Shown in pieces: positions 8,888 to 56,943 of a stretch of DNA of 64,000 nucleotides. Below the pieces are notes generated by a model that was not told where the DNA came from, did no database searches, and saw only the letters and a list, made by a program, of their open reading frames with translations. This DNA is from a virus (taxonomy: Duplodnaviria; Heunggongvirae; Uroviricota; Caudoviricetes): the IMG/VR virus record IMGVR_UViG_2526164690_000025. One strand, given 5' to 3'. The translations under genes were made by a program, and so were the position numbers. The stretch's first letter is position 1; each line of letters begins with the position of its first letter.

Positions 8888-11262
8888 TCAACTCTCGCGT
8901 AGTCATTCATCAACGGATCATCAATTGACAGTGGTACCGTGCGCATAACGCCCGGCTGAGGCGTGCTGACCTTTACGACAGTTCCCTGGCCTTTCGCCGA
9001 GTCTTTGGTGTGCTCTTCAATCCTGGCAAGCAATGAGGTCATCTGCGCAAACAGCCGCTTCGTTTCACCATCAAGTGAAACGGTATTATCAGCCAACTGC
9101 ATTGTCGGCTTGGCACCGGAGCCGCCAAGGTCACTAATAACCTGTCCGTCTATCTGCATACGACCGGTTGGTTGCTGCAAATCGTTGGCGGCAGTCGTCA
9201 CCTGGGACGTGGAGGCTGGTTCAGGCGCATTATTTTTCCGCATCCCCGGCGAGTTGAGGAGTTTATCGAATAGTCCATCAATCCCCATTTGTGCGCCGAG
9301 CTGGTCAAAGTAACTTGAGTTGTTGGCCACCGGACGCGCCTCTTCAACTGGCATCGGGGTATCAACATACACATTGCCAGCTGCTGTTGCGGTCCCCTTC
9401 CCTCGTGCACGTTCTTCGAGCGTTCCCTGAACGACTTCCCGACGCATACCCCGGCCATTCATGAATTTGTTGACCAGATCGTTAACGCCAACAGCATTGC
9501 CAATTTTGTCTACCAGACCGCCTTTCTCAAACGGGCTATCACCAGGGGTAAACACCAGGCCAGTAGACTGATCGATAACAGCGTTATCAGGCAGTGGTCC
9601 CCTCACTCCATATTGCGCCCCACCCTGTGCTCCTGCTCCAGGTGTATAGATTTCACCACCTAAATAGCGAGCACGATGAGTATTGACCTTGATCGCGTAC
9701 TCACGGTTTTCTTTCGATAAGTCACCTGTGCCTTTTTTCCACTTATTGATAGTGCCAAACCCAGCGTTATATGCAGTGATGGCCTCGTTTAAGTCTCCAT
9801 TGGCTTGCTTCAGATACTTGCTCATGAGAAGAGCCGCAGCTTCTGCCGATTTTTCCGGATTAAAAGAATCTTCCCGGGATAATCCAGTTTCCTCACGAGC
9901 AACGCTCGTAAACTGGAACATTCCGAGAGCGCCACCACTTAGCTTTCCATTTGGTGATCTTGTAAGCGTAGATTTTGCGTTAGGATCACCACCAGATTCA
10001 GTTGCAGCGATCGCGTAAAGAGTACCTTCAGGAAGGCCATATTTATTCTCTAGTTCAGCAAAATACGGAGCCAACTTATCGAGATTTGCCTTACCTTCAG
10101 CGCCAAGGCTTCCGACTTTTACATCTAAGTTGCCATTGTTGTAGGTATCCGCAGCTTTCTGAATGTCATTCCTGGTGCCAGTAGTATTAAGCGACGATGA
10201 TGATGAGCTATTTTGACCAATAGCATTATCAATTTTCTGCAACGCGCGATTGCCCGTTTCTACGGCATTTGCATTGATAATCTGATTGGCAGTTTCTTTA
10301 ACTGTTTTATTGCTATCTTTCGCCGTATCTAGGGATGCATTTACAACACGAGTGACAATATTAGCCTTTTTAGGGGTATATTCAGTCTTAGGAGCATTGT
10401 CCTCCTGACTTTCTTTAGCTGGTGTTTTTAATTCAGGTGTAACCTCTTTCGCATCCGCTTTGTTGACTAGCTTTGATGCAACCCAGGCCACAGGGGTGCT
10501 CTGAACAGCGGCATCTGCAACCTCACCTGAAAGCTCTTTTGCGGCACTCCATAGATTACTGCCAGCCTCTTTAATGTATTTCCCAGGATTCTTAATGAAA
10601 TCAATTGCACTATCAATTGCATCACTGAAAACCTGTTTCAGGTTATCGACAGTAAAGAAGTTTTTGATGGCGTCTAATTTTTCGTTCAGATTCTTTGTGG
10701 TGTCACTGAACCATGCAGAAATAGCATCACCAATCTTTGCTGTATAATCATCGAACTTGGTAGAAATGGTGTCGCCAAGATTAGAAATATATGTTTCTAA
10801 GTTGGTAACCCCGCTATCAATGGCCTGGGCAATACTTTCCGTCGAAAATGATTGCAACATATTGCCGATATCCTCAAATCCAAGTGATTTGAGAACCTCA
10901 CCAATGGCGCTGCTAATACCAGATACCAGTCCCCCCATATCAAGAACATTAGCTAACGTATAAGCGGCTTTTTGCTGGAATGATGGATCTTGTCCTGATT
11001 TAAGCCCAAACGCTCGGCGTTGCGCTTCTATATCATTCCAACCGGTTACCGCATCATAGATACCTCCAGCCACCGTGCCGACTAGCGGAATTGCACGTAA
11101 AGCGCCTTTTGCGACCGCCTTAATCCCTAGTTTCCCTACCCCCTTAATACCTAAAGCGCCGAGTGCCATCGAGCCAACTTTCTTTAGTGCCCCACGGCCA
11201 AAAATAAGGGAGGCAATACCACCGGCCCCCTTCCCTAACAGGCTAAATAATTTGGACAGCAA
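8884..11262 (-). CDS. virion-associated lytic transglycosylase (Sit-like injection/tape-measure protein), C-terminal 792 aa
   Basis: SLT domain motif ...AIAATESGGDPNAKS...GALGMFQFTSV...AYNAGFGTI; Gly-rich N-terminus; adjacent out-of-frame ORF 11292-12215 probably its 5' part. Confidence 0.7.
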   Translation of the reverse strand: MLSKLFSLLGKGAGGIASLIFGRGALKKVGSMALGALGIKGVGKLGIKAVAKGALRAIPLVGTVAGGIYDAVTGWNDIEAQRRAFGLKSGQDPSFQQKAAYTLANVLDMGGLVSGISSAIGEVLKSLGFEDIGNMLQSFSTESIAQAIDSGVTNLETYISNLGDTISTKFDDYTAKIGDAISAWFSDTTKNLNEKLDAIKNFFTVDNLKQVFSDAIDSAIDFIKNPGKYIKEAGSNLWSAAKELSGEVADAAVQSTPVAWVASKLVNKADAKEVTPELKTPAKESQEDNAPKTEYTPKKANIVTRVVNASLDTAKDSNKTVKETANQIINANAVETGNRALQKIDNAIGQNSSSSSSLNTTGTRNDIQKAADTYNNGNLDVKVGSLGAEGKANLDKLAPYFAELENKYGLPEGTLYAIAATESGGDPNAKSTLTRSPNGKLSGGALGMFQFTSVAREETGLSREDSFNPEKSAEAAALLMSKYLKQANGDLNEAITAYNAGFGTINKWKKGTGDLSKENREYAIKVNTHRARYLGGEIYTPGAGAQGGAQYGVRGPLPDNAVIDQSTGLVFTPGDSPFEKGGLVDKIGNAVGVNDLVNKFMNGRGMRREVVQGTLEERARGKGTATAAGNVYVDTPMPVEEARPVANNSSYFDQLGAQMGIDGLFDKLLNSPGMRKNNAPEPASTSQVTTAANDLQQPTGRMQIDGQVISDLGGSGAKPTMQLADNTVSLDGETKRLFAQMTSLLARIEEHTKDSAKGQGTVVKVSTPQPGVMRTVPLSIDDPLMNDYARVD

Positions 11263-11291
11263 GCCGCCCTTCTTTTTCCCGGTGTTTTTGG

Positions 11292-12215
11292 CTATCTGAT
11301 CAAGGGCGCTGAGAATCTTGTCATTGCCCTCTTTAATTTCGCTGGTCTGATCCTGAAGTTCCTGAACCGTCCGTTTTTGGGTGTTAACCTGAACGACATC
11401 GGCACTATTTTGCGATTTACGCCTAAAAAACCTTTTCTACGGCTGTTATCGTCATTGCCACGAATCACATCGGCAATAGACTTTCTGGCACCATTAAGCG
11501 ATCCGCCAACTTCTTTTGATATCCCGCCAAGCTCCTTCCCTGCTGCCCACAATGGACCAGCAACGGCATAACCTAACGCATCGACGGCACGAGTCTCTGA
11601 AGGGTTACCTATGCCTTCAGCTACTTTTGACAATTTTTTTAATAAACCTGATTCAGCATTTAGACGCTCATCATCCTCTTTTCGCCTGGCCTTTTCTGCT
11701 CGTTCAGCACGGGCTTCTTCCGCTGCGGCCTTACTCCCTGACTTTCCAATAAAACGACCACGCGCATCGCGTTGGTTTTGGCTTTTTTGCGCACCGCCTT
11801 TTTGACCGAACATTTCGCGAGCGTGTTCGGCTGCTTCGGTCCGTTGTGCCTTTACATCCTCTGGTATAGCCTTCCTGCGTCGTTTTTTACCCTTTGGTGT
11901 GGTTGATTTGGCCCGCTGTTCCTGTTGAGCAACATCTTCCTGAACTACACGAGAAACGTCCCCTAAATTAAGCCGTTTCATTGCGTCAACAATAGGGTCT
12001 ACTGATGGCGCTTTGGTCACAAAGTCAGGACGTGAATTTTCGATTGTGCGATTTAATGCCGACACGCTGCGAGAGACAGGATCAACAGTAGCAACGCGTC
12101 CCCCTTTCAAATCTTCAACAGCTTCCCGGATACCTGCAAGCTCTTCCAGCTCTTTTGCGCTGGCGGTTTCAACTGTCCTTATAACATCGTCAATGTTGGC
12201 GTTTTTTCTTTCCAT
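11292..12215 (-). CDS. probable N-terminal segment of the Sit-like protein (frame-split)
   Basis: 307-aa Lys/Arg/Glu-rich ORF ending in an implausible tail; separated from 8884-11262 by a frame change near an A6 run at 11425-11430. Confidence 0.45.
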   Translation of the reverse strand: MERKNANIDDVIRTVETASAKELEELAGIREAVEDLKGGRVATVDPVSRSVSALNRTIENSRPDFVTKAPSVDPIVDAMKRLNLGDVSRVVQEDVAQQEQRAKSTTPKGKKRRRKAIPEDVKAQRTEAAEHAREMFGQKGGAQKSQNQRDARGRFIGKSGSKAAAEEARAERAEKARRKEDDERLNAESGLLKKLSKVAEGIGNPSETRAVDALGYAVAGPLWAAGKELGGISKEVGGSLNGARKSIADVIRGNDDNSRRKGFLGVNRKIVPMSFRLTPKNGRFRNFRIRPAKLKRAMTRFSAPLIR

Positions 12216-12296
12216 GATCTTATCGCCTACCGTTTCGGTTTAAGTTTTTCTTCCAGCTTCTCCAACAGGAAAAACGCATAGGATTCAGTGAGCCTT

Positions 12297-13178
12297 TCAG
12301 CGTCCTGAATCGGTATACCCCCATACAAAACCAGGTTGGACACTAAGGTCTGATAGCTTTTCAATCCCCACCTGTGGAATGAAGTCGGTAGCCCGAAAGG
12401 GCACCCACAGACGGGTATACGCACCCTCTGTGGACTCCTTTTTATCTTGGTTTGGGCATTTATGCGGCGGGAGACGAAGACGCATTTCACCTTTATCGAT
12501 GTAGCACGGTAAACCATGTTCGAGCTTTTCATGAGCCAGTCGGATGTGTGCCGCCAGTTTCATAAATTCAGTATCAATGGCCATCCGTTTAATCGTTTCA
12601 TAACGACGCTCAGCCTGATCTTCACGAGTACCGCTAACATCGTTATAAAGCTCACACTGATAAGCGAATTCCCAAAAACGCAAATCAACGATCGCTTCTT
12701 TGAATTCCGCATCGTCTTCAGGTGGCAATGCTGCACGGCGCATCTCCAGCATTTCCATTGCCCAACCATCAAGCGGCACGATACGCCATTGATAAGGCAC
12801 TCCCTCTACAGACACCTCAATATCGTCAATGAAAGGTTCCACTTCCAGGACCTGGATATCTTCAGCCAGAGCATTCATATCGCAATCGTAATAATGCTCT
12901 TTACCGCAATGTTTACAGGTGTAGGTGAATGTCTCGACCGGTGTTTCACGGGAGCCGGTAAATATCCACCATAACGCGGTAATCCGGTCCTGCGCCGTCC
13001 ATGTCAGGGGATCATGTTTCGCGGGTTCAGCCAGCAAGGCTTTTAAATACGCCGTTGTCTGTTGTTCTTGTTCCTCCGGTGTTATCGAGTTGAAACGCAT
13101 CGCATCAGCAATATTTGGCTGACGGAACTGGATCAATTCAGTTGGCCGCGATGGTAGCGGGAAAAGGGGTAAAAGCAT
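12297..13178 (-). CDS. phage structural/morphogenesis protein with Cys-rich motif
   Basis: 293-aa ORF, CKHCGKEHYYDCD motif; tail operon context. Confidence 0.35.
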   Translation of the reverse strand: MLLPLFPLPSRPTELIQFRQPNIADAMRFNSITPEEQEQQTTAYLKALLAEPAKHDPLTWTAQDRITALWWIFTGSRETPVETFTYTCKHCGKEHYYDCDMNALAEDIQVLEVEPFIDDIEVSVEGVPYQWRIVPLDGWAMEMLEMRRAALPPEDDAEFKEAIVDLRFWEFAYQCELYNDVSGTREDQAERRYETIKRMAIDTEFMKLAAHIRLAHEKLEHGLPCYIDKGEMRLRLPPHKCPNQDKKESTEGAYTRLWVPFRATDFIPQVGIEKLSDLSVQPGFVWGYTDSGR

Positions 13179-13192
13179 CCTTGCTCCTTAAT

Positions 13193-13804
13193 TCAAAGAG
13201 AAAAACTAAAGCCCAGAAGGGAAGCCAAAGAACTTGAGGATTGGTTAAACGTGCTGTGCAATGCGAAGGTCATTGGGAATGACTTAAATTCCGTAACCTG
13301 ATCCCGCGCATAGGTGACATCTCCGGTAGTGACCGGGAATACCGTCATCTCATTTTCCAGTTTGGTTAAGCCGGAAGACAGCAACCGATAAATACGCACA
13401 TTGAGCAAATATTTAGACGGTATATTCCCGGTACCGTCCGGATTGATCACCCGACTTTTTGCCGTCTTAAACCAGTCCAAAACGAGGCCATCAACGGTAT
13501 CCCTGACCATCATTGTTATCTGCCCAGGCGAACGCTCCGTTGGTTGAAGGATATTCCCTCCGCCGATTTTAATCGTTTCATATTCGATGCTGTAATCGTG
13601 GTAGGTAATATCTTTGGCAAAGAAGTCTGCCCCCTCCAGTCCATCAACTTCGACAGAGAACTGCCATCCTTGCGCGAACAGCATTTTGTTCATGATGATT
13701 GACGTCAGCTTACCAACTTCCCGCTCACCAACGCCGGAGCCAAATAATGTCGTCGTTAATGCCGAAGATACATAAGACTTTACTGAAGCAACATTAAGCC
13801 CCAT
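13193..13804 (-). CDS. phage structural protein (tail operon)
   Basis: 203-aa ORF, context only. Confidence 0.35.
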   Translation of the reverse strand: MGLNVASVKSYVSSALTTTLFGSGVGEREVGKLTSIIMNKMLFAQGWQFSVEVDGLEGADFFAKDITYHDYSIEYETIKIGGGNILQPTERSPGQITMMVRDTVDGLVLDWFKTAKSRVINPDGTGNIPSKYLLNVRIYRLLSSGLTKLENEMTVFPVTTGDVTYARDQVTEFKSFPMTFALHSTFNQSSSSLASLLGFSFSL

Positions 13805-13814
13805 ATCAGCCCCC

Positions 13815-14422
<608 letters not shown>

Positions 14423-14461
14423 TTGTCATTTGTGACAGTATGCTCGCAATCGTAGTGATTA

Positions 14462-15001
14462 CTACCACCAACTGCTAGCTTTCTTCTCTCTAGCTTTTCC
14501 TTCGCTTTGCAGTAAATCTTTACTTCCTGTAGAAATATTTCTATTTGCATCAGCCTCAGACTGAATTACATCTGTCTTAGCTGCTCTCTCCTTCAACTCC
14601 TGCTCTATAAAATCGTTTTCTCGCTGGACACGAGCCGCTTTTGCTTGCAGTTCGAGTTTCATGCTTTCGAGTTGCAGCTTGCGAAGCTCATCCTCATAAG
14701 CTTGATCTCGCTTCTTGTCATTTGCTAGCTCGGCTTCTCGTTTCGCTCTACGTTCATTTTCTGCAGCAACACGCTGTTTTTCGCGTGCAGCAGCGGCAGA
14801 TGCTGCTTTTTCTCTTCTAATACGTTCAGCTTGTGCTTGTTGGCGAATAAGTTCTTTTCTGGCATCCTCAGCTTGCTGCTCTTTAGCTCGCCCTTCATTT
14901 TCCGCTTGAGCAATAGCAGCAATTTGACTTTGCAACGAGTTAGCCAAGGCAGTGCCTACACTAAACGTAGAAAAGATTAGAAATAAAATAATTTTATTCA
15001 T
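14462..15001 (-). CDS. secreted coiled-coil protein (signal peptide, Ala/Glu/Arg/Lys-rich)
   Basis: N-terminal signal MNKIILFLIFSTFSVGTALA, long charged coiled-coil-like region. Confidence 0.5.
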   Translation of the reverse strand: MNKIILFLIFSTFSVGTALANSLQSQIAAIAQAENEGRAKEQQAEDARKELIRQQAQAERIRREKAASAAAAREKQRVAAENERRAKREAELANDKKRDQAYEDELRKLQLESMKLELQAKAARVQRENDFIEQELKERAAKTDVIQSEADANRNISTGSKDLLQSEGKAREKKASSWW

Positions 15002-15004
15002 AAA

Positions 15005-15526
15005 TTATTTCTTTTCTGGACAAGTAGCATTTGGCTGAATTCGAGTTTCATTATCTTTAGTTGAAATAAGCACAGCAAGCCCCGTTGTAAACTGGCATGC
15101 TTTACCAACTTGAGTTGAAGTGAACACCTTAGTTCCTTCTTTATAAGTCAGTGAAACACCTTCAACAATTGTTTTATCACTAACCAAAGAACCAGCCGCT
15201 GCACCAAGAGCCGCACCACCAGTACCGCCAGCTACAGCACCCAGTGTCGATGTGCCTTTAACATTATAACCGGCAACGCCCCCAGCAACAGCTCCCAGTA
15301 CCGCACCAAATGTCTGTGCCGCTTCTTTATTAGCTTTATTATCAACTTTCACTTTAGCTGGAAGCACAGAGATAATATTGACTGTCTTTGTTTCCTGCTT
15401 CGAATTCAATTGAGCGGTATCATAAACATCGGCAGCATAATCAGCACCGCTAGATTGACACCCAGAAAGAAGAATTGCAGATACAACAAGAGCGCATAAA
15501 GTATACTTTTTAGACATAAGAATCAT
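15005..15526 (-). CDS. lipoprotein with glycine-zipper region
   Basis: Lipobox LLSGC; GAVLGAVAGGVAGY...GAVAGGTGGAALGAAAG glycine zipper. Confidence 0.6.
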   Translation of the reverse strand: MILMSKKYTLCALVVSAILLSGCQSSGADYAADVYDTAQLNSKQETKTVNIISVLPAKVKVDNKANKEAAQTFGAVLGAVAGGVAGYNVKGTSTLGAVAGGTGGAALGAAAGSLVSDKTIVEGVSLTYKEGTKVFTSTQVGKACQFTTGLAVLISTKDNETRIQPNATCPEKK

Positions 15527-15807
15527 TCCAGAAAAACAAAAACCGGCGAGAAGTTACCACGAGAACGGAAAGTAAACAAGAATACTCCCATTGACTTATA
15601 TCAATTAATCAACTTTTTATAAGCTATCCCTAACTTATTGTGTATAGCTGAAAAGTCAGAGACAAGTTCACCATCTGCATTATTTCTTAAGTTAATAGTT
15701 TATTGCTAACTTAATTTATGTATCGACTATTGATATCCATCTTAAAGTTACAATATCCCTCTGCATTATTTTTCATCACAAATAATATATCTATTGCACG
15801 ACACTCA

Positions 15808-15824
15808 TCTGCTCTAATAAATTT
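15808..15824 (+). promoter_or_regulatory. C1-operator-like site (TCTGCTCTAATAAATTT)
   Basis: 15/17 match to P1 C1 operator consensus ATTGCTCTAATAAATTT; upstream of immI-like module 1. Confidence 0.6.
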
Positions 15825-15999
15825 GTATTTTTAAGTGGCGAATGCTATCTTTTCGCATCATATTGACCTTTTAATCGTTCAGGCTTATAGTTCCCGCCGT
15901 CGTAGCAAATTCTGCGACCAGGTTTGACAGCCTGAATGATTGTGCGGACAACCGCAGATTTCCGATATTGCGGTATTTTTGTGTCCGTAAAACCGCGTT

Positions 16000-16085
16000 A
16001 CGCCCAAATTATGGTGGGGCGTGATGGGGAGGCTTCGGCCTGCTGGTTTCACAATCGCCAGTCTGTCAACCCTGTCACGTCCTGC
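16000..16085 (+). ncRNA. c4-like antisense RNA region (boundaries approximate)
   Basis: Structured leader with UUCG hairpin (gaggcttcggcctg) and boxes cacaatc (16050-16056) and ctgtcaacc (16063-16071) complementary to gattgtg (15938-15944; 16122-16128) and gtttgacag (15922-15930; 16091-16099); target box overlaps icd SD. Confidence 0.45.
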
Positions 16086-16139
16086 CACCTGTTTGACAGC
16101 GGGTAGCAGGTTGTTAAACCTGATTGTGAGGCCGTAACT

Positions 16140-16361
16140 ATGGTTAATGCCAATCCTTGCGCACGCCAAGAATTCATCTGGCGTTTCTATTCCTGTAAAA
16201 AACACCACTATCACTTCGTTATCGCAGCAACAGAAGACGAAGCACGCTCTCAATTGCCTGATGGCCCCTGCATTTTCACTGCCCGTTTTTCAACTAACTC
16301 GCGCAATTCACTTAGTTACTGGAACCTCCCCTTCTCTGCCGACGTTCAGGGGGTTTTATGA
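16140..16361 (+). CDS. icd: Icd-like small protein (73 aa)
   Basis: 73-codon ORF with SD gagg 8 nt upstream, immediately preceding and overlapping the antirepressor gene, as in P1 immI. Confidence 0.6.
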   Translation: MVNANPCARQEFIWRFYSCKKHHYHFVIAATEDEARSQLPDGPCIFTARFSTNSRNSLSYWNLPFSADVQGVL

Positions 16362-17394
16362 AAAACCTCTCGTCACCCGTAATGAAATAGCCGAAGCGAT
16401 CGCTTTGCATACAACCTGTATGCCGACACGGGAGATCCCCGGCGCAATTGCCAACTATTTCATGATAACCAGGCGTTTTTATACCCGAACAGATAAGGCT
16501 GTGATCAACAGGCTACTGATAGCCGAGATCAGGGATTATTTGATTGAACAAGGACGTCTACGTTACGCAACGGTGGCAGCAGAAATGAGAAAGGAGGCGC
16601 GCAGAATGACCGGTAATAATTTGAATGTTGAAAAACCAGCACCTGTTGCTTTAGCTACGCCATCACCAACTGTGAATGTTATCTCCAACACTGGAGACAC
16701 AATCGACAGCCAGACACTGTTAAAGATGGTCAATGAAGCGCGTAAGTTATGTGGGGAACCAGAGGTTCGGAACAACAAATTCATCGAAAAAATACTCGAT
16801 GAGCTTGATGGTGAGCACTACACAAAAAGTGTAGTGGAAAAAATGAACAAAACATCAATGCTTGTCATAACCATGACCTACAAACAAGCCCTGCGAGTCG
16901 CCGCGCGCGAATCAAAAGCTGTCCGCCGTTCGCTGATCGACAAACTGGAAGAATTGCAGCAGGCAAACTCCCCTACCCCATCGATCCCCCAAACATTACC
17001 AGAAGCCCTACGCCTGGCTGCCGAGTTGGCAGAACAGAAAATGCATCTGGAACAACAGCTGGTGGCCGCAGCACCTAAAGTCGATTTTGCCGACCGGGTA
17101 TCAGTGGCTAATGGAATCCTGATCGGTAACTTTGCAAAGGTCGTTGGACTTAAGCAAAACGCCCTTTTCTCATGGTTGCGCCAGAACGGCATTCTCATGG
17201 CTTTTGGTGCGCGCAAAAACGTACCGCGCCAACAGTACATCAACGCCGGGTATTTCACGGTGAAAGAAGTGGTGCTGGATGATGAAAATGGCTACCAGAT
17301 ACGGCTGACGCCCCAATTAACGGGTAAAGGCCAGCAGTGGTTAACTCGCAAGCTACTTGATGCTGGTTTGTTAAAACCAGTAGCAATAGGTTAA
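16357..17394 (+). CDS. ant: antirepressor (Ant-like, KilAC-type C-terminal domain), copy 1; start codon unresolved
   Basis: Homologous to 44048-45082 over the whole length; in this copy the ATG overlapping the icd stop (16358) is out of frame by 1 nt; the frame stays open upstream to ATG 16147. Confidence 0.6.
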   Translation, partial: YEKPLVTRNEIAEAIALHTTCMPTREIPGAIANYFMITRRFYTRTDKAVINRLLIAEIRDYLIEQGRLRYATVAAEMRKEARRMTGNNLNVEKPAPVALATPSPTVNVISNTGDTIDSQTLLKMVNEARKLCGEPEVRNNKFIEKILDELDGEHYTKSVVEKMNKTSMLVITMTYKQALRVAARESKAVRRSLIDKLEELQQANSPTPSIPQTLPEALRLAAELAEQKMHLEQQLVAAAPKVDFADRVSVANGILIGNFAKVVGLKQNALFSWLRQNGILMAFGARKNVPRQQYINAGYFTVKEVVLDDENGYQIRLTPQLTGKGQQWLTRKLLDAGLLKPVAIG

Positions 17395-18388: not shown

Positions 18389-18967
18389 ATGCTGGCTAAA
18401 GTCACTTTCCTGAGCTGTATAACGATGAGCGATTTTACTTTTTCTGGCTATGAATTGGCCTGCTTTGTAACACACTCCGGTCTATCCCGTAGCGCCGGGC
18501 ATATCCTGTCGCAATGTGCAAATCTCGCGGCAACAACCAGTGAATACTTCATTCACAAGCCTCACCGCCTGATCGCGGCAGAAACTGGTTATAGCCAATC
18601 AACCGTCGTTCGTGCATTCCGTGAAGCTGTAAACAAAGGAATCCTGTCAGTAGAGATTGTTATCGGCGATCACCGTGAACGTCGCGCTAACCTGTACCGG
18701 TTTACACCATCCTTTTTGGCCTTCGCACAACAAGCAAAAAATGCGCTGATTGAAAGCAAATTAAAGATCTCTTCAGCGGCAACCAAGGTTAAAGCTGTTC
18801 TCGCTAAGACATTGGCTTTATTTAATTTTTTATCCACACCCCCATGTCAAAATGATACCCCCTCCCCCTGTCAGGATGACGTGGCAATAAAGAATAAGAA
18901 GTCACAATTTAAAAAACAAAAAGATCAGTTTCCGGCGCTGCCGGAACGACCAAACTCAAAAAATTGA
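18389..18967 (+). CDS. HTH DNA-binding protein, possible lytic-replication RepL-like
   Basis: 192-aa ORF with helix-turn-helix-like segment (TGYSQSTVVRAFREAVNKGIL); position after kilA as repL in P1. Confidence 0.35.
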   Translation: MLAKVTFLSCITMSDFTFSGYELACFVTHSGLSRSAGHILSQCANLAATTSEYFIHKPHRLIAAETGYSQSTVVRAFREAVNKGILSVEIVIGDHRERRANLYRFTPSFLAFAQQAKNALIESKLKISSAATKVKAVLAKTLALFNFLSTPPCQNDTPSPCQDDVAIKNKKSQFKKQKDQFPALPERPNSKN

Positions 18968-19233
18968 CTTCATGGATCGCTGAGGCAAAAGCAAAGGCTG
19001 ACAATCTGCGGTTATCCAAAAAACGCGCTCAAAAACATGAGTTCAAGCAGAAAGTAGAGGCGGCAGCGCGGAAATATGCTTACCTGAAGAACAAGCGTTC
19101 TCCTGATATTGGCGGGGTATCAAACTTCGATAATCTGCCGCATTGCATGACGGTAAACGAAGCTCTTAATGCGGTTTTAGCCAAAAATAAAGATAACGAA
19201 CAATGGGGTATACCGGCGGGATTCAGAGGGTAA
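18964..19233 (+). CDS. hypothetical protein
   Basis: 89-aa ORF, non-ATG start implied. Confidence 0.3.
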   Translation: MTSWIAEAKAKADNLRLSKKRAQKHEFKQKVEAAARKYAYLKNKRSPDIGGVSNFDNLPHCMTVNEALNAVLAKNKDNEQWGIPAGFRG

Positions 19234-26457: not shown

Positions 26458-26568
26458 GGCACTTGTGTGAATCCCTTTTCGGAAGAGATTTTATTGAAAG
26501 TCACTTGTTGACTTTCTCGTGACAAGCAATTTTTTTATTTTTTCGGGAGGAGGGGAGGAAGGTAAAAT

Positions 26569-56665: not shown

Positions 56666-56943
56666 ACCGTGAGTATGCATCAAATCGTCAGTTTTTCAGG
56701 TGGACGAGCATCAGCCTGTCTCGTTCATCTGTTCGAATAGGTAGTGGCATGACAATCGTAAAAACCCATACCGGCACCGTGATCACCAAAGACGGTCCGC
56801 AGGTAAAAAACTGCACCAAACAGAGCGGATGTGGGTCGTCGGCAAAAATGAGTTTTACCACAAAGATACCGGACGCCGCCACTTTGCAGAAAATACGCGC
56901 CGTCGACTGCTGTTAGACACCATCAAGCCTATCGAGGTGAAGC

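Follow-up and report, generated by a model that had tools for sequence, protein, structure and literature searches.

The Sit protein of phage P1 (gp38; NC_005856 40988-44410, 1140 aa) is now regarded as the tape measure protein of the tail and has been detected by proteomics (PMC9024508). Its N-terminal two-thirds is long and helical, which would fit a tape measure, and an SLT domain is located at about residues 750-900 (PMC9024508). The DNA analysed here, a window of 64,000 nucleotides, corresponds to contig AIGH01000015.1 of the 2012 draft genome of E. coli DEC8C and carries a P1-like plasmid prophage. The sit gene (tape measure/structural injection transglycosylase) occupies positions 8884..12215 of its minus strand, with 1110 codons once one T is restored. 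As in P1, it lies between pmgB and pmgA/bplA. The adjacent genes encode PmgB (293 aa, 12297-13178), PmgA (119 aa, 8528-8887) and BplA (477 aa, 7098-8531), and the gene order of the tail/baseplate operon (pmgB - sit - pmgA - bplA - 16 - R - S) is that of P1 and of plasmid p88_19539-1.

The sit DNA is 92-96% identical to the sit genes of P1, P7, phi456, RCS47 and SJ46 (about 93.6% for the P1 sit region), and the encoded protein shares an identical N-terminus, MERKNANIDDVIRTVETASAKELEEL, with P1 Sit. In the repaired protein of 1110 residues the Pfam SLT domain PF01464 was found at residues 718-837 (E=1.1e-25, 89.9 bits, cut-off 21.3), near the C-terminal third as in P1 Sit. The difference in length from the P1 protein (1110 versus 1140 aa) is due to in-frame indels, with net changes of -72, -9 and -9 nt relative to P1. 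Similarity to P1, the PF01464 match and the position of the gene thus bear out the original prediction of a P1 Sit-type gene with an SLT domain, the product of which is, as judged from sequence, most probably a tape measure protein with an SLT muralytic domain.

Unlike P1 sit, the deposited copy carries a 1-nt deletion, and the single ORF of about 1100-1240 residues expected for P1 Sit is absent from the deposited sequence. It is replaced by two neighbouring minus-strand ORFs in different frames, 11292-12215 (307 aa, deposited as EHW21487.1) and 8884-11262 (792 aa), which together comprise 1099 residues; their adjacency, the change of frame and a total of about 1100 residues had been noticed originally. 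The TTG start of the second ORF at 11262 is a mechanical call, as the downstream frame (8884..11436 from stop to stop, deposited as EHW21486.1) is open as far up as 11436, and the two frames thus overlap over 11292-11436. This downstream frame contains the Gly/Ala-rich hydrophobic segment, a helical region, the SLT domain and the C-terminus. The 307-residue ORF, on the other hand, consists of the authentic Sit N-terminus (residues 1-262) followed by 45 residues of out-of-frame read-through up to the stop codon (263-307, from ...RRKGF-LGVNRK...).

In a DNA alignment with the sit genes of P1, phi456 and MH422554, the only indel that is not a multiple of three is a 1-nt deletion at 11425-11430, a run that reads as A6 on the plus strand and T6 on the gene strand and that has seven bases in the relatives. 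The frame thus shifts at sit codons 263-264, exactly at the A6 run that had been proposed as the shift point, and the suspected out-of-frame tail of the first ORF was likewise confirmed. The remaining indels (297, 96, 9 and 9 nt) were rejected as the source of the split, since all are in frame; moreover, the 96-nt and 9-nt indels also occur in the intact sit genes of near-identical plasmids. Addition of one T to the run yields an uninterrupted ORF of 1110 residues with 100% identity to ORF 73312-76644 of p88_19539-1 (NZ_CP077492.1, from E. coli O111:H11), in which position 74097 corresponds to position 11430 of the window. This plasmid has A7, an intact sit and no IS10, whereas the window has A6 and an IS10 copy; its sit is annotated by PGAP from an internal start, giving 1032 aa.

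The two ORFs could in principle be naturally separate proteins, with the window correct and the relatives overcalled, a reading that can appeal only to the fact that pairwise comparisons are formally symmetrical and that we consider hardly conceivable. The longer runs leave all affected genes intact, and the longer state is found in the phage P1 references NC_005856 and AF234172 as well as in hundreds of independent assemblies. The profile phrog_2533, 1130 positions long, covers the two ORFs with its positions 1-264 and 382-1130. A further argument against separate proteins is that phrog_2533 and phrog_21630 match the 307-residue ORF at residues 1-265 only, so that its out-of-frame tail has no match in the main Sit profiles. 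All relatives have a single ORF, and separate conservation of the two products in related phages was accordingly not found.

The shorter run is very rare. A run of seven was observed at this site in all 82 IMG/VR contigs, in 470 of 471 complete E. coli records and in 475 of 478 PLSDB plasmids, so that the sit ORF is continuous in over 99% of the roughly 1000 records. Close relatives include P1-like plasmids of other O111, bovine and poultry origin, and the near-identical O111 plasmids all have A7. This distribution also bears on the possibility that A6 is real and that full-length Sit is made, at a low or regulated level, by a -1 ribosomal slip. The gene strand reads G GUU UUU UAG in the shifted register, i.e. 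U_UUU_UUA in the upstream frame, where the zero-frame codons GGU UUU UUA follow a U and fit the X_XXY_YYZ slippery pattern, and a slip would give ...G-F-F/L-R-R-K-S... as in the Sit of relatives. The two-frame arrangement is, however, conserved in no relative, and no stimulatory structure was found in the following 95 nt: their minimum free energy is -13 kcal/mol, shuffled sequences average -16.8 (z=+1.43), and folding as good as or better than that of the native segment was obtained for 191 of 200 shuffles. Programmed frameshifting was rejected on these grounds and appears extremely improbable; the slippery heptamer arises solely from the missing base, and the remaining evidence for an assembly error counts against recoding as well. 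It is also very unlikely that A6 is real in DEC8C and in strain CVM9553, with full-length tape measure arising only by a -1 slip at a fortuitous U_UUU_UUA or by reversion of the run length; tail production by the P1-like prophage would then be leaky or phase-variable.

Comparison of the window with p88_19539-1 over about 61.7 kb revealed only 2 substitutions against 11 one-base indels. Ten of the 11 indels are shorter in the window (two-sided sign test, p=0.012), all ten contractions affect single-base runs, which in nine cases are 5 or more bases long, and the rate of contraction climbs with A/T run length, from 0/163 for 5-mers to 3/66 for 6-mers and 4/18 for 7-mers. Nine of the indels are inside genes annotated as intact in p88_19539-1, and in eight of these cases the reading frame is broken or altered, among them sit, the tail fibre gene and repL. 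At 9 of 9 comparable sites the longer run is also present in a second, independent complete plasmid, pTK3896_3, and the window is the outlier at all sites that could be polarised. In mutation-accumulation data of wild-type E. coli, substitutions outnumber indels by about 10 to 1. At this ratio, 2 substitutions predict about 0.2 indels, and the probability of observing 11 or more is approximately 4e-16. Two explanations had been offered originally, decay of the element and systematic indels introduced by the assembly. The imbalance between indels and substitutions and the bias towards contraction strongly favour the second.

The other frame breaks are of the same kind. The homologue of tail fibre gene S (minus strand, 2744..2751) is split by two contractions, G5 to G4 and G3 to G2, with breaks at 2747/2749. 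In a copy of ant, encoding a KilAC antirepressor, codon 3 contains a contraction of A6 to A5 (plus strand, 16361..16365), A6 being found in 9 of 9 IMG/VR contigs; these breaks, at 2747/2749 and 16365, had already been reported at short runs and are indeed present. A contraction of A6 to A5 is also found in the gene 16 homologue (minus strand, 6952..6956; A6 in 17 of 17 IMG/VR contigs), and the p88_19539-1 alignment shows that repL, which encodes 281 residues in relatives, is divided into ORFs of 192 and 89 residues by a contraction of A7 to A6 (plus strand, 18911..18916).

The gene 16 homologue also harbours a lesion of a different nature, an IS10 element (ISVsa5) of 1329 bp on the plus strand at 5403..6731, flanked by a 9-bp target duplication, CGCTCAAGG, at 5394-5402 and 6732-6740. 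Remnant indels had been ascribed to this element, but it is intact, with a transposase ORF of 402 residues that is 100% identical to other copies. This is a genuine insertion, the one lesion here that a run-length miscall cannot produce. With IS10 in gene 16 the prophage may already make no tails, and selection on the tail genes, including sit, may be relaxed, such that real decay would be tolerated. Loss of one T by replication slippage in the DEC8C prophage, leaving sit as a pseudogene in an already defective element, therefore has to be considered, all the more since homopolymer runs are natural slippage hotspots. We regard it as unlikely, because ten contractions, that in sit included, stand against only 2 substitutions, which is implausible for neutral decay, and because the run of seven is found in every near-identical O111 plasmid.

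The same explanation draws on the occurrence of the 6-run elsewhere, in the deposited drafts of two distinct O111 strains as well as in a read-level assembly. The identical 307-residue product has been deposited for O111:H11 strain CVM9553 (EJE87250.1), from a contig (AKAY01000085.1) that is 100% identical to positions 10788-15215 of the window, and the shared 6-run could therefore be a real mutation inherited by descent. Exact look-up of the products, however, found the 192-residue RepL fragment (contraction at 18916) in a single contig, that of DEC8C, suggesting that the two drafts do not share the full set of contractions, as far as repL, the one gene compared, can tell. In this look-up 6 of 10 frameshifted ORFs were unmatched, probably as a result of other start codons being chosen by gene callers. 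In the Logan read-level assembly SRR497695 the sit contraction recurs, together with two further ones, A5 to A4 and G5 to G4, within 1.7 kb, which implies that its reads are error-prone at runs.

The three other 6-run records are likewise full of frame breaks. A raw indel count against p88_19539-1 was too noisy for these plasmids, as they are 3-4% divergent and the P1 control also gave 1-nt gaps, and it was replaced by a per-gene tblastn frame test together with PGAP flags. By the tblastn test, 3 of 4, 6 of 14 and 5 of 14 neighbouring genes are broken, and in one of the records, pSCLS1, PGAP has flagged the portal, lysozyme, ompC, tet(A) and other genes as frameshifted.

We propose, therefore, that the split of sit is very probably an assembly artefact caused by systematic undercalling of homopolymers. 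The real DNA would contain sit as one gene of 3333 nt, encoding a tape measure protein of 1110 residues whose N-terminal two-thirds is helical and which also has a hydrophobic segment rich in Gly and Ala and a predicted SLT muralytic domain at 718-837. Sequencing chemistry and consensus caller would have read the T7/A7 run as six, so that the frame appears to shift by -1 at codons 263-264, and the same undercounting would have affected at least nine other single-base runs of the 64-kb window, breaking the tail fibre gene, gene 16, ant, repL and small ORFs. The fault would thus lie in the reads and not in the DNA, and we infer a pyrosequencing-like platform. The DEC8C draft is presumably a pyrosequencing product, as its error signature suggests. 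We continue to class the locus as sit in spite of its split, attributing the lack of one ORF to a base-calling error.

In all likelihood, then, the two-ORF arrangement is not a real biological feature. Run-length errors occur in the contig at a density of about one in 6 kb, and for this reason the apparent pseudogenes sit, tail fibre S, gene 16, ant and repL should all be counted as unproven; taken at face value, the sequence would overstate the decay of the DEC8C prophage. For the question of prophage viability, the relevant feature is the IS10 insertion in gene 16. Should A6 be real, the result would be an ordinary pseudogene, produced by slippage in a well-known gene.

Homopolymer-length errors are a known class of artefact in pyrosequencing and long-read drafts. 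The locus departs from the simple case of this class in that the same contraction occurs in a second draft, that of CVM9553. Under the error model, however, about 22% of the A/T 7-mers in the window are undercalled, and sharing of one contraction is therefore not unlikely, assuming a similar platform for that draft. In other respects the indels of the window resemble the class closely: they are one-base changes in single-base runs, biased towards contraction and commoner in longer runs, and they create apparent frameshifts in otherwise identical genes.

The sit locus (the P1 gene for the tail tape measure with an SLT domain) is deposited as two minus-strand ORFs in different frames, an upstream one at 11292-12215 (307 aa, ATG start) and a downstream one at 8884-11262 (792 aa from a mechanically assigned TTG start). 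ORF calls and six-frame translation agree with the original prediction in both coordinates and description, and show that the downstream frame is open already from 11436, the two frames overlapping over 11292-11436. In a megablast search against phage records, 8800-12300 was 92-96% identical to the pmgA-sit-pmgB region in P1, P7, phi456, RCS47, SJ46 and others. In P1 (NC_005856) sit is a single CDS of 3423 nt (1140 aa) between pmgB and pmgA, and phi456 and MH422554 likewise have one CDS. Four-way DNA alignment with these three relatives gave five gaps for the sit of the window, four of them in frame (297, 96, 9 and 9 nt) and one of 1 nt, located in GG-TTTTTT-AGG, a run that counts seven T's in each of the three relatives. 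This run is the A6 run at 11425-11430 (plus-strand context GCCTAAAAAACCTTTTC), and since it holds the only 1-nt gap, the proposed shift point is confirmed. Addition of one T yields an ORF of 3333 nt (1110 aa) without internal stop, 100% identical to ORF 73312-76644 of plasmid p88_19539-1. Sit-type PHROG profiles span both fragments, and the repaired protein contains an SLT domain (Pfam, residues 718-837, E=1.1e-25). Sit is a virion protein and is assigned the role of tape measure in the P1 tail; its muralytic SLT domain lies close to the C-terminus (PMC9024508). The assignment to P1 Sit is thus correct, and the locus is an ordinary member of this tape-measure family.

The closest complete relative is p88_19539-1 itself (NZ_CP077492.1, E. 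coli O111:H11, 96,776 bp), and alignment of 993-5402 and 6732-64000 to it revealed 2 substitutions versus 11 one-base indels, ten of which are contractions in the window. These affect tail fibre S (G5 to G4 at 2747, G3 to G2 at 2749), the gene 16 homologue (A6 to A5 at 6956), sit (A7 to A6 at 11430), codon 3 of ant (A6 to A5 at 16365), repL (A7 to A6 at 18916), two small hypothetical ORFs (C5 to C4 at 22112, A7 to A6 at 56810) and intergenic sites (T7 to T6 at 26543, A6 to A5 at 39861). The sole expansion, TT to TTT at 1554, lies at the fibre stop and next gene start and is harmless. Nine of the 11 indels are inside genes annotated as intact in p88_19539-1, and within the first 27 kb the matches of 4 of 18 p88 proteins (sit, fibre S, gene 16 and repL) are split between frames. 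The contraction rate of A/T runs climbs with length, from 0/163 5-mers through 3/66 6-mers to 4/18 7-mers. The longer state is found at all nine comparable contraction sites in pTK3896_3, a second, independent complete plasmid from Japan, and in all IMG/VR contigs covering the sites at 6956 (17/17), 16365 (9/9) and 11430 (80/80). In E. coli, substitutions exceed indels about 10-fold; under this ratio, 2 substitutions would be accompanied by about 0.2 indels (P for 11 or more, ~4e-16). Replication error and neutral decay do not yield an excess of this size, made up nearly wholly of contractions; it is the textbook mark of run-length undercalling.

The distribution of the sit run in databases was also determined. 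A pattern scan of IMG/VR permitting 6 or 7 T's found seven in 82 of 82 contigs. A query of 81 nt with the run at its centre had full-length matches in 471 complete E. coli records and 478 PLSDB plasmids, of which only one and three, respectively, were 100% identical and hence had six T's. These represent three plasmids, pSCLS1, pNCYU-24-74-3 and pH1998-p0111, in which tblastn matches of p88 proteins change frame within 3/4, 6/14 and 5/14 of the neighbouring genes. In pSCLS1 the portal, lysozyme, ompC, pmgB, tet(A) and further genes are flagged as frameshifted, and in pH1998-p0111 repL is broken as in the window. The six-T state is therefore known in databases only from assemblies with pervasive frame errors.

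Of the two explanations in the original prediction, a decaying element or systematic indel errors in the assembly, we strongly favour the latter, and in all likelihood sit is not truly split. Genuine decay, with the sit contraction as a real mutation, appears unlikely, and two observations speak for it. Firstly, the contraction is common to two different O111 drafts and could be an allele from a common ancestor. Exact-protein look-up placed the 307-aa product on AIGH01000015.1 (72,226 bp, GCA_000249835.2; E. coli DEC8C, sit halves EHW21487.1 and EHW21486.1), with coordinates coinciding with the window, and on AKAY01000085.1 (E. coli O111:H11 CVM9553, EJE87250.1), which is 100% identical to 10788-15215. 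However, with about 22% of A/T 7-mers in the window undercalled under the error model, recurrence at the same 7-mer is unremarkable, given a similar platform. Moreover, inherited mutations would be shared as a full set, and the 192-aa N-terminal RepL fragment resulting from the 18916 contraction was found by exact-protein look-up only on the DEC8C contig, a single data point suggesting that the drafts do not share all contractions. A Logan contig from run SRR497695 likewise encodes the 307-aa product and has two more contractions within 1.7 kb (A5 to A4 at 12245, G5 to G4 at 11226), indicating that these reads are error-prone at runs. This contig and that of CVM9553 both stop at exactly 10788, within sit, which suggests one shared read set, or an assembly-breaking repeat or coverage gap at that position.

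Secondly, an IS10/ISVsa5 element, absent from p88_19539-1, is present at 5403-6731. It had been regarded as a remnant with indels, but is intact (1329 bp, 402-aa transposase ORF), matches copies elsewhere at 100% identity, and is flanked by a 9-bp target duplication, CGCTCAAGG (5394-5402 and 6732-6740). The interrupted 278-aa gene lies between R and bplA, which by P1 gene order makes it the gene 16 (baseplate) homologue (PMC9024508). No run-length miscall can produce such an insertion, which makes it the strongest candidate for a lesion that truly inactivates the prophage, and relaxed selection on tail genes is conceivable.

Recoding of the six-T allele was considered as well. The upstream frame reads GGU UUU UUA, which with the preceding U forms an X_XXY_YYZ heptamer, at which a -1 slip would, from the sequence, restore the Sit frame. 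The two-frame arrangement was not found in relatives, and shuffled sequences fold at least as well as the 95 nt that lie downstream (z=+1.43). Without conservation or downstream structure, recoding was rejected, the heptamer being a curiosity made by the missing base.

Several annotation irregularities were encountered. The profile phrog_24683 (752 positions) matches residues 1-306 of the 307-aa fragment, including the out-of-frame tail (11292-11430), where the remaining Sit PHROGs end at residue 265; sequences with a frameshifted Sit fragment apparently went into its construction, and the artefact may thus have spread into a family database. PGAP places the Sit start internally in near-identical plasmids (1032 aa; p88_19539-1 record 73546-76644, equal to L004 25546-28644, and L094 19539-22637), while the ORF is open 234 nt further upstream (1110 aa) and identical there to the P1-type N-terminus, probably a start-site annotation inconsistency. 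About 210 contigs, belonging to many E. coli and Salmonella assemblies, carry the C-terminal 89 aa of RepL (18964-19233, plus strand), in exactly this form, as a separate entry named 'replication protein RepL'; pNCYU-24-74-3 annotates just this piece, and repL of pH1998-p0111 breaks at the same residue. This would be explained either by a hotspot of recurrent errors or mutations at the repL A7 run, or by frequent annotation of the C-terminal ORF alone.

Finally, the window's lineage can be compared with P1 and its relatives. Natural in-frame length variants of Sit (8884-12215 versus P1, phi456 and MH422554) differ by blocks of 297, 96/24, 9 and 9 nt, with sizes of 1110 aa in the window lineage, 1140 aa in P1 and 1231 aa in phi456, to which cluster members add lengths of 1142 and 1241 aa. 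With Sit as the tape measure, these variants would predict differing tail lengths among P1-like phages. The icd/ant (KilAC antirepressor) module is present in two diverged copies in the window (15797-17384 and 43490-45117) and in at least four more in p88_19539-1, the copies being 79-96% identical to one another; P1 has a single ant1/ant2 module, fewer than found here.
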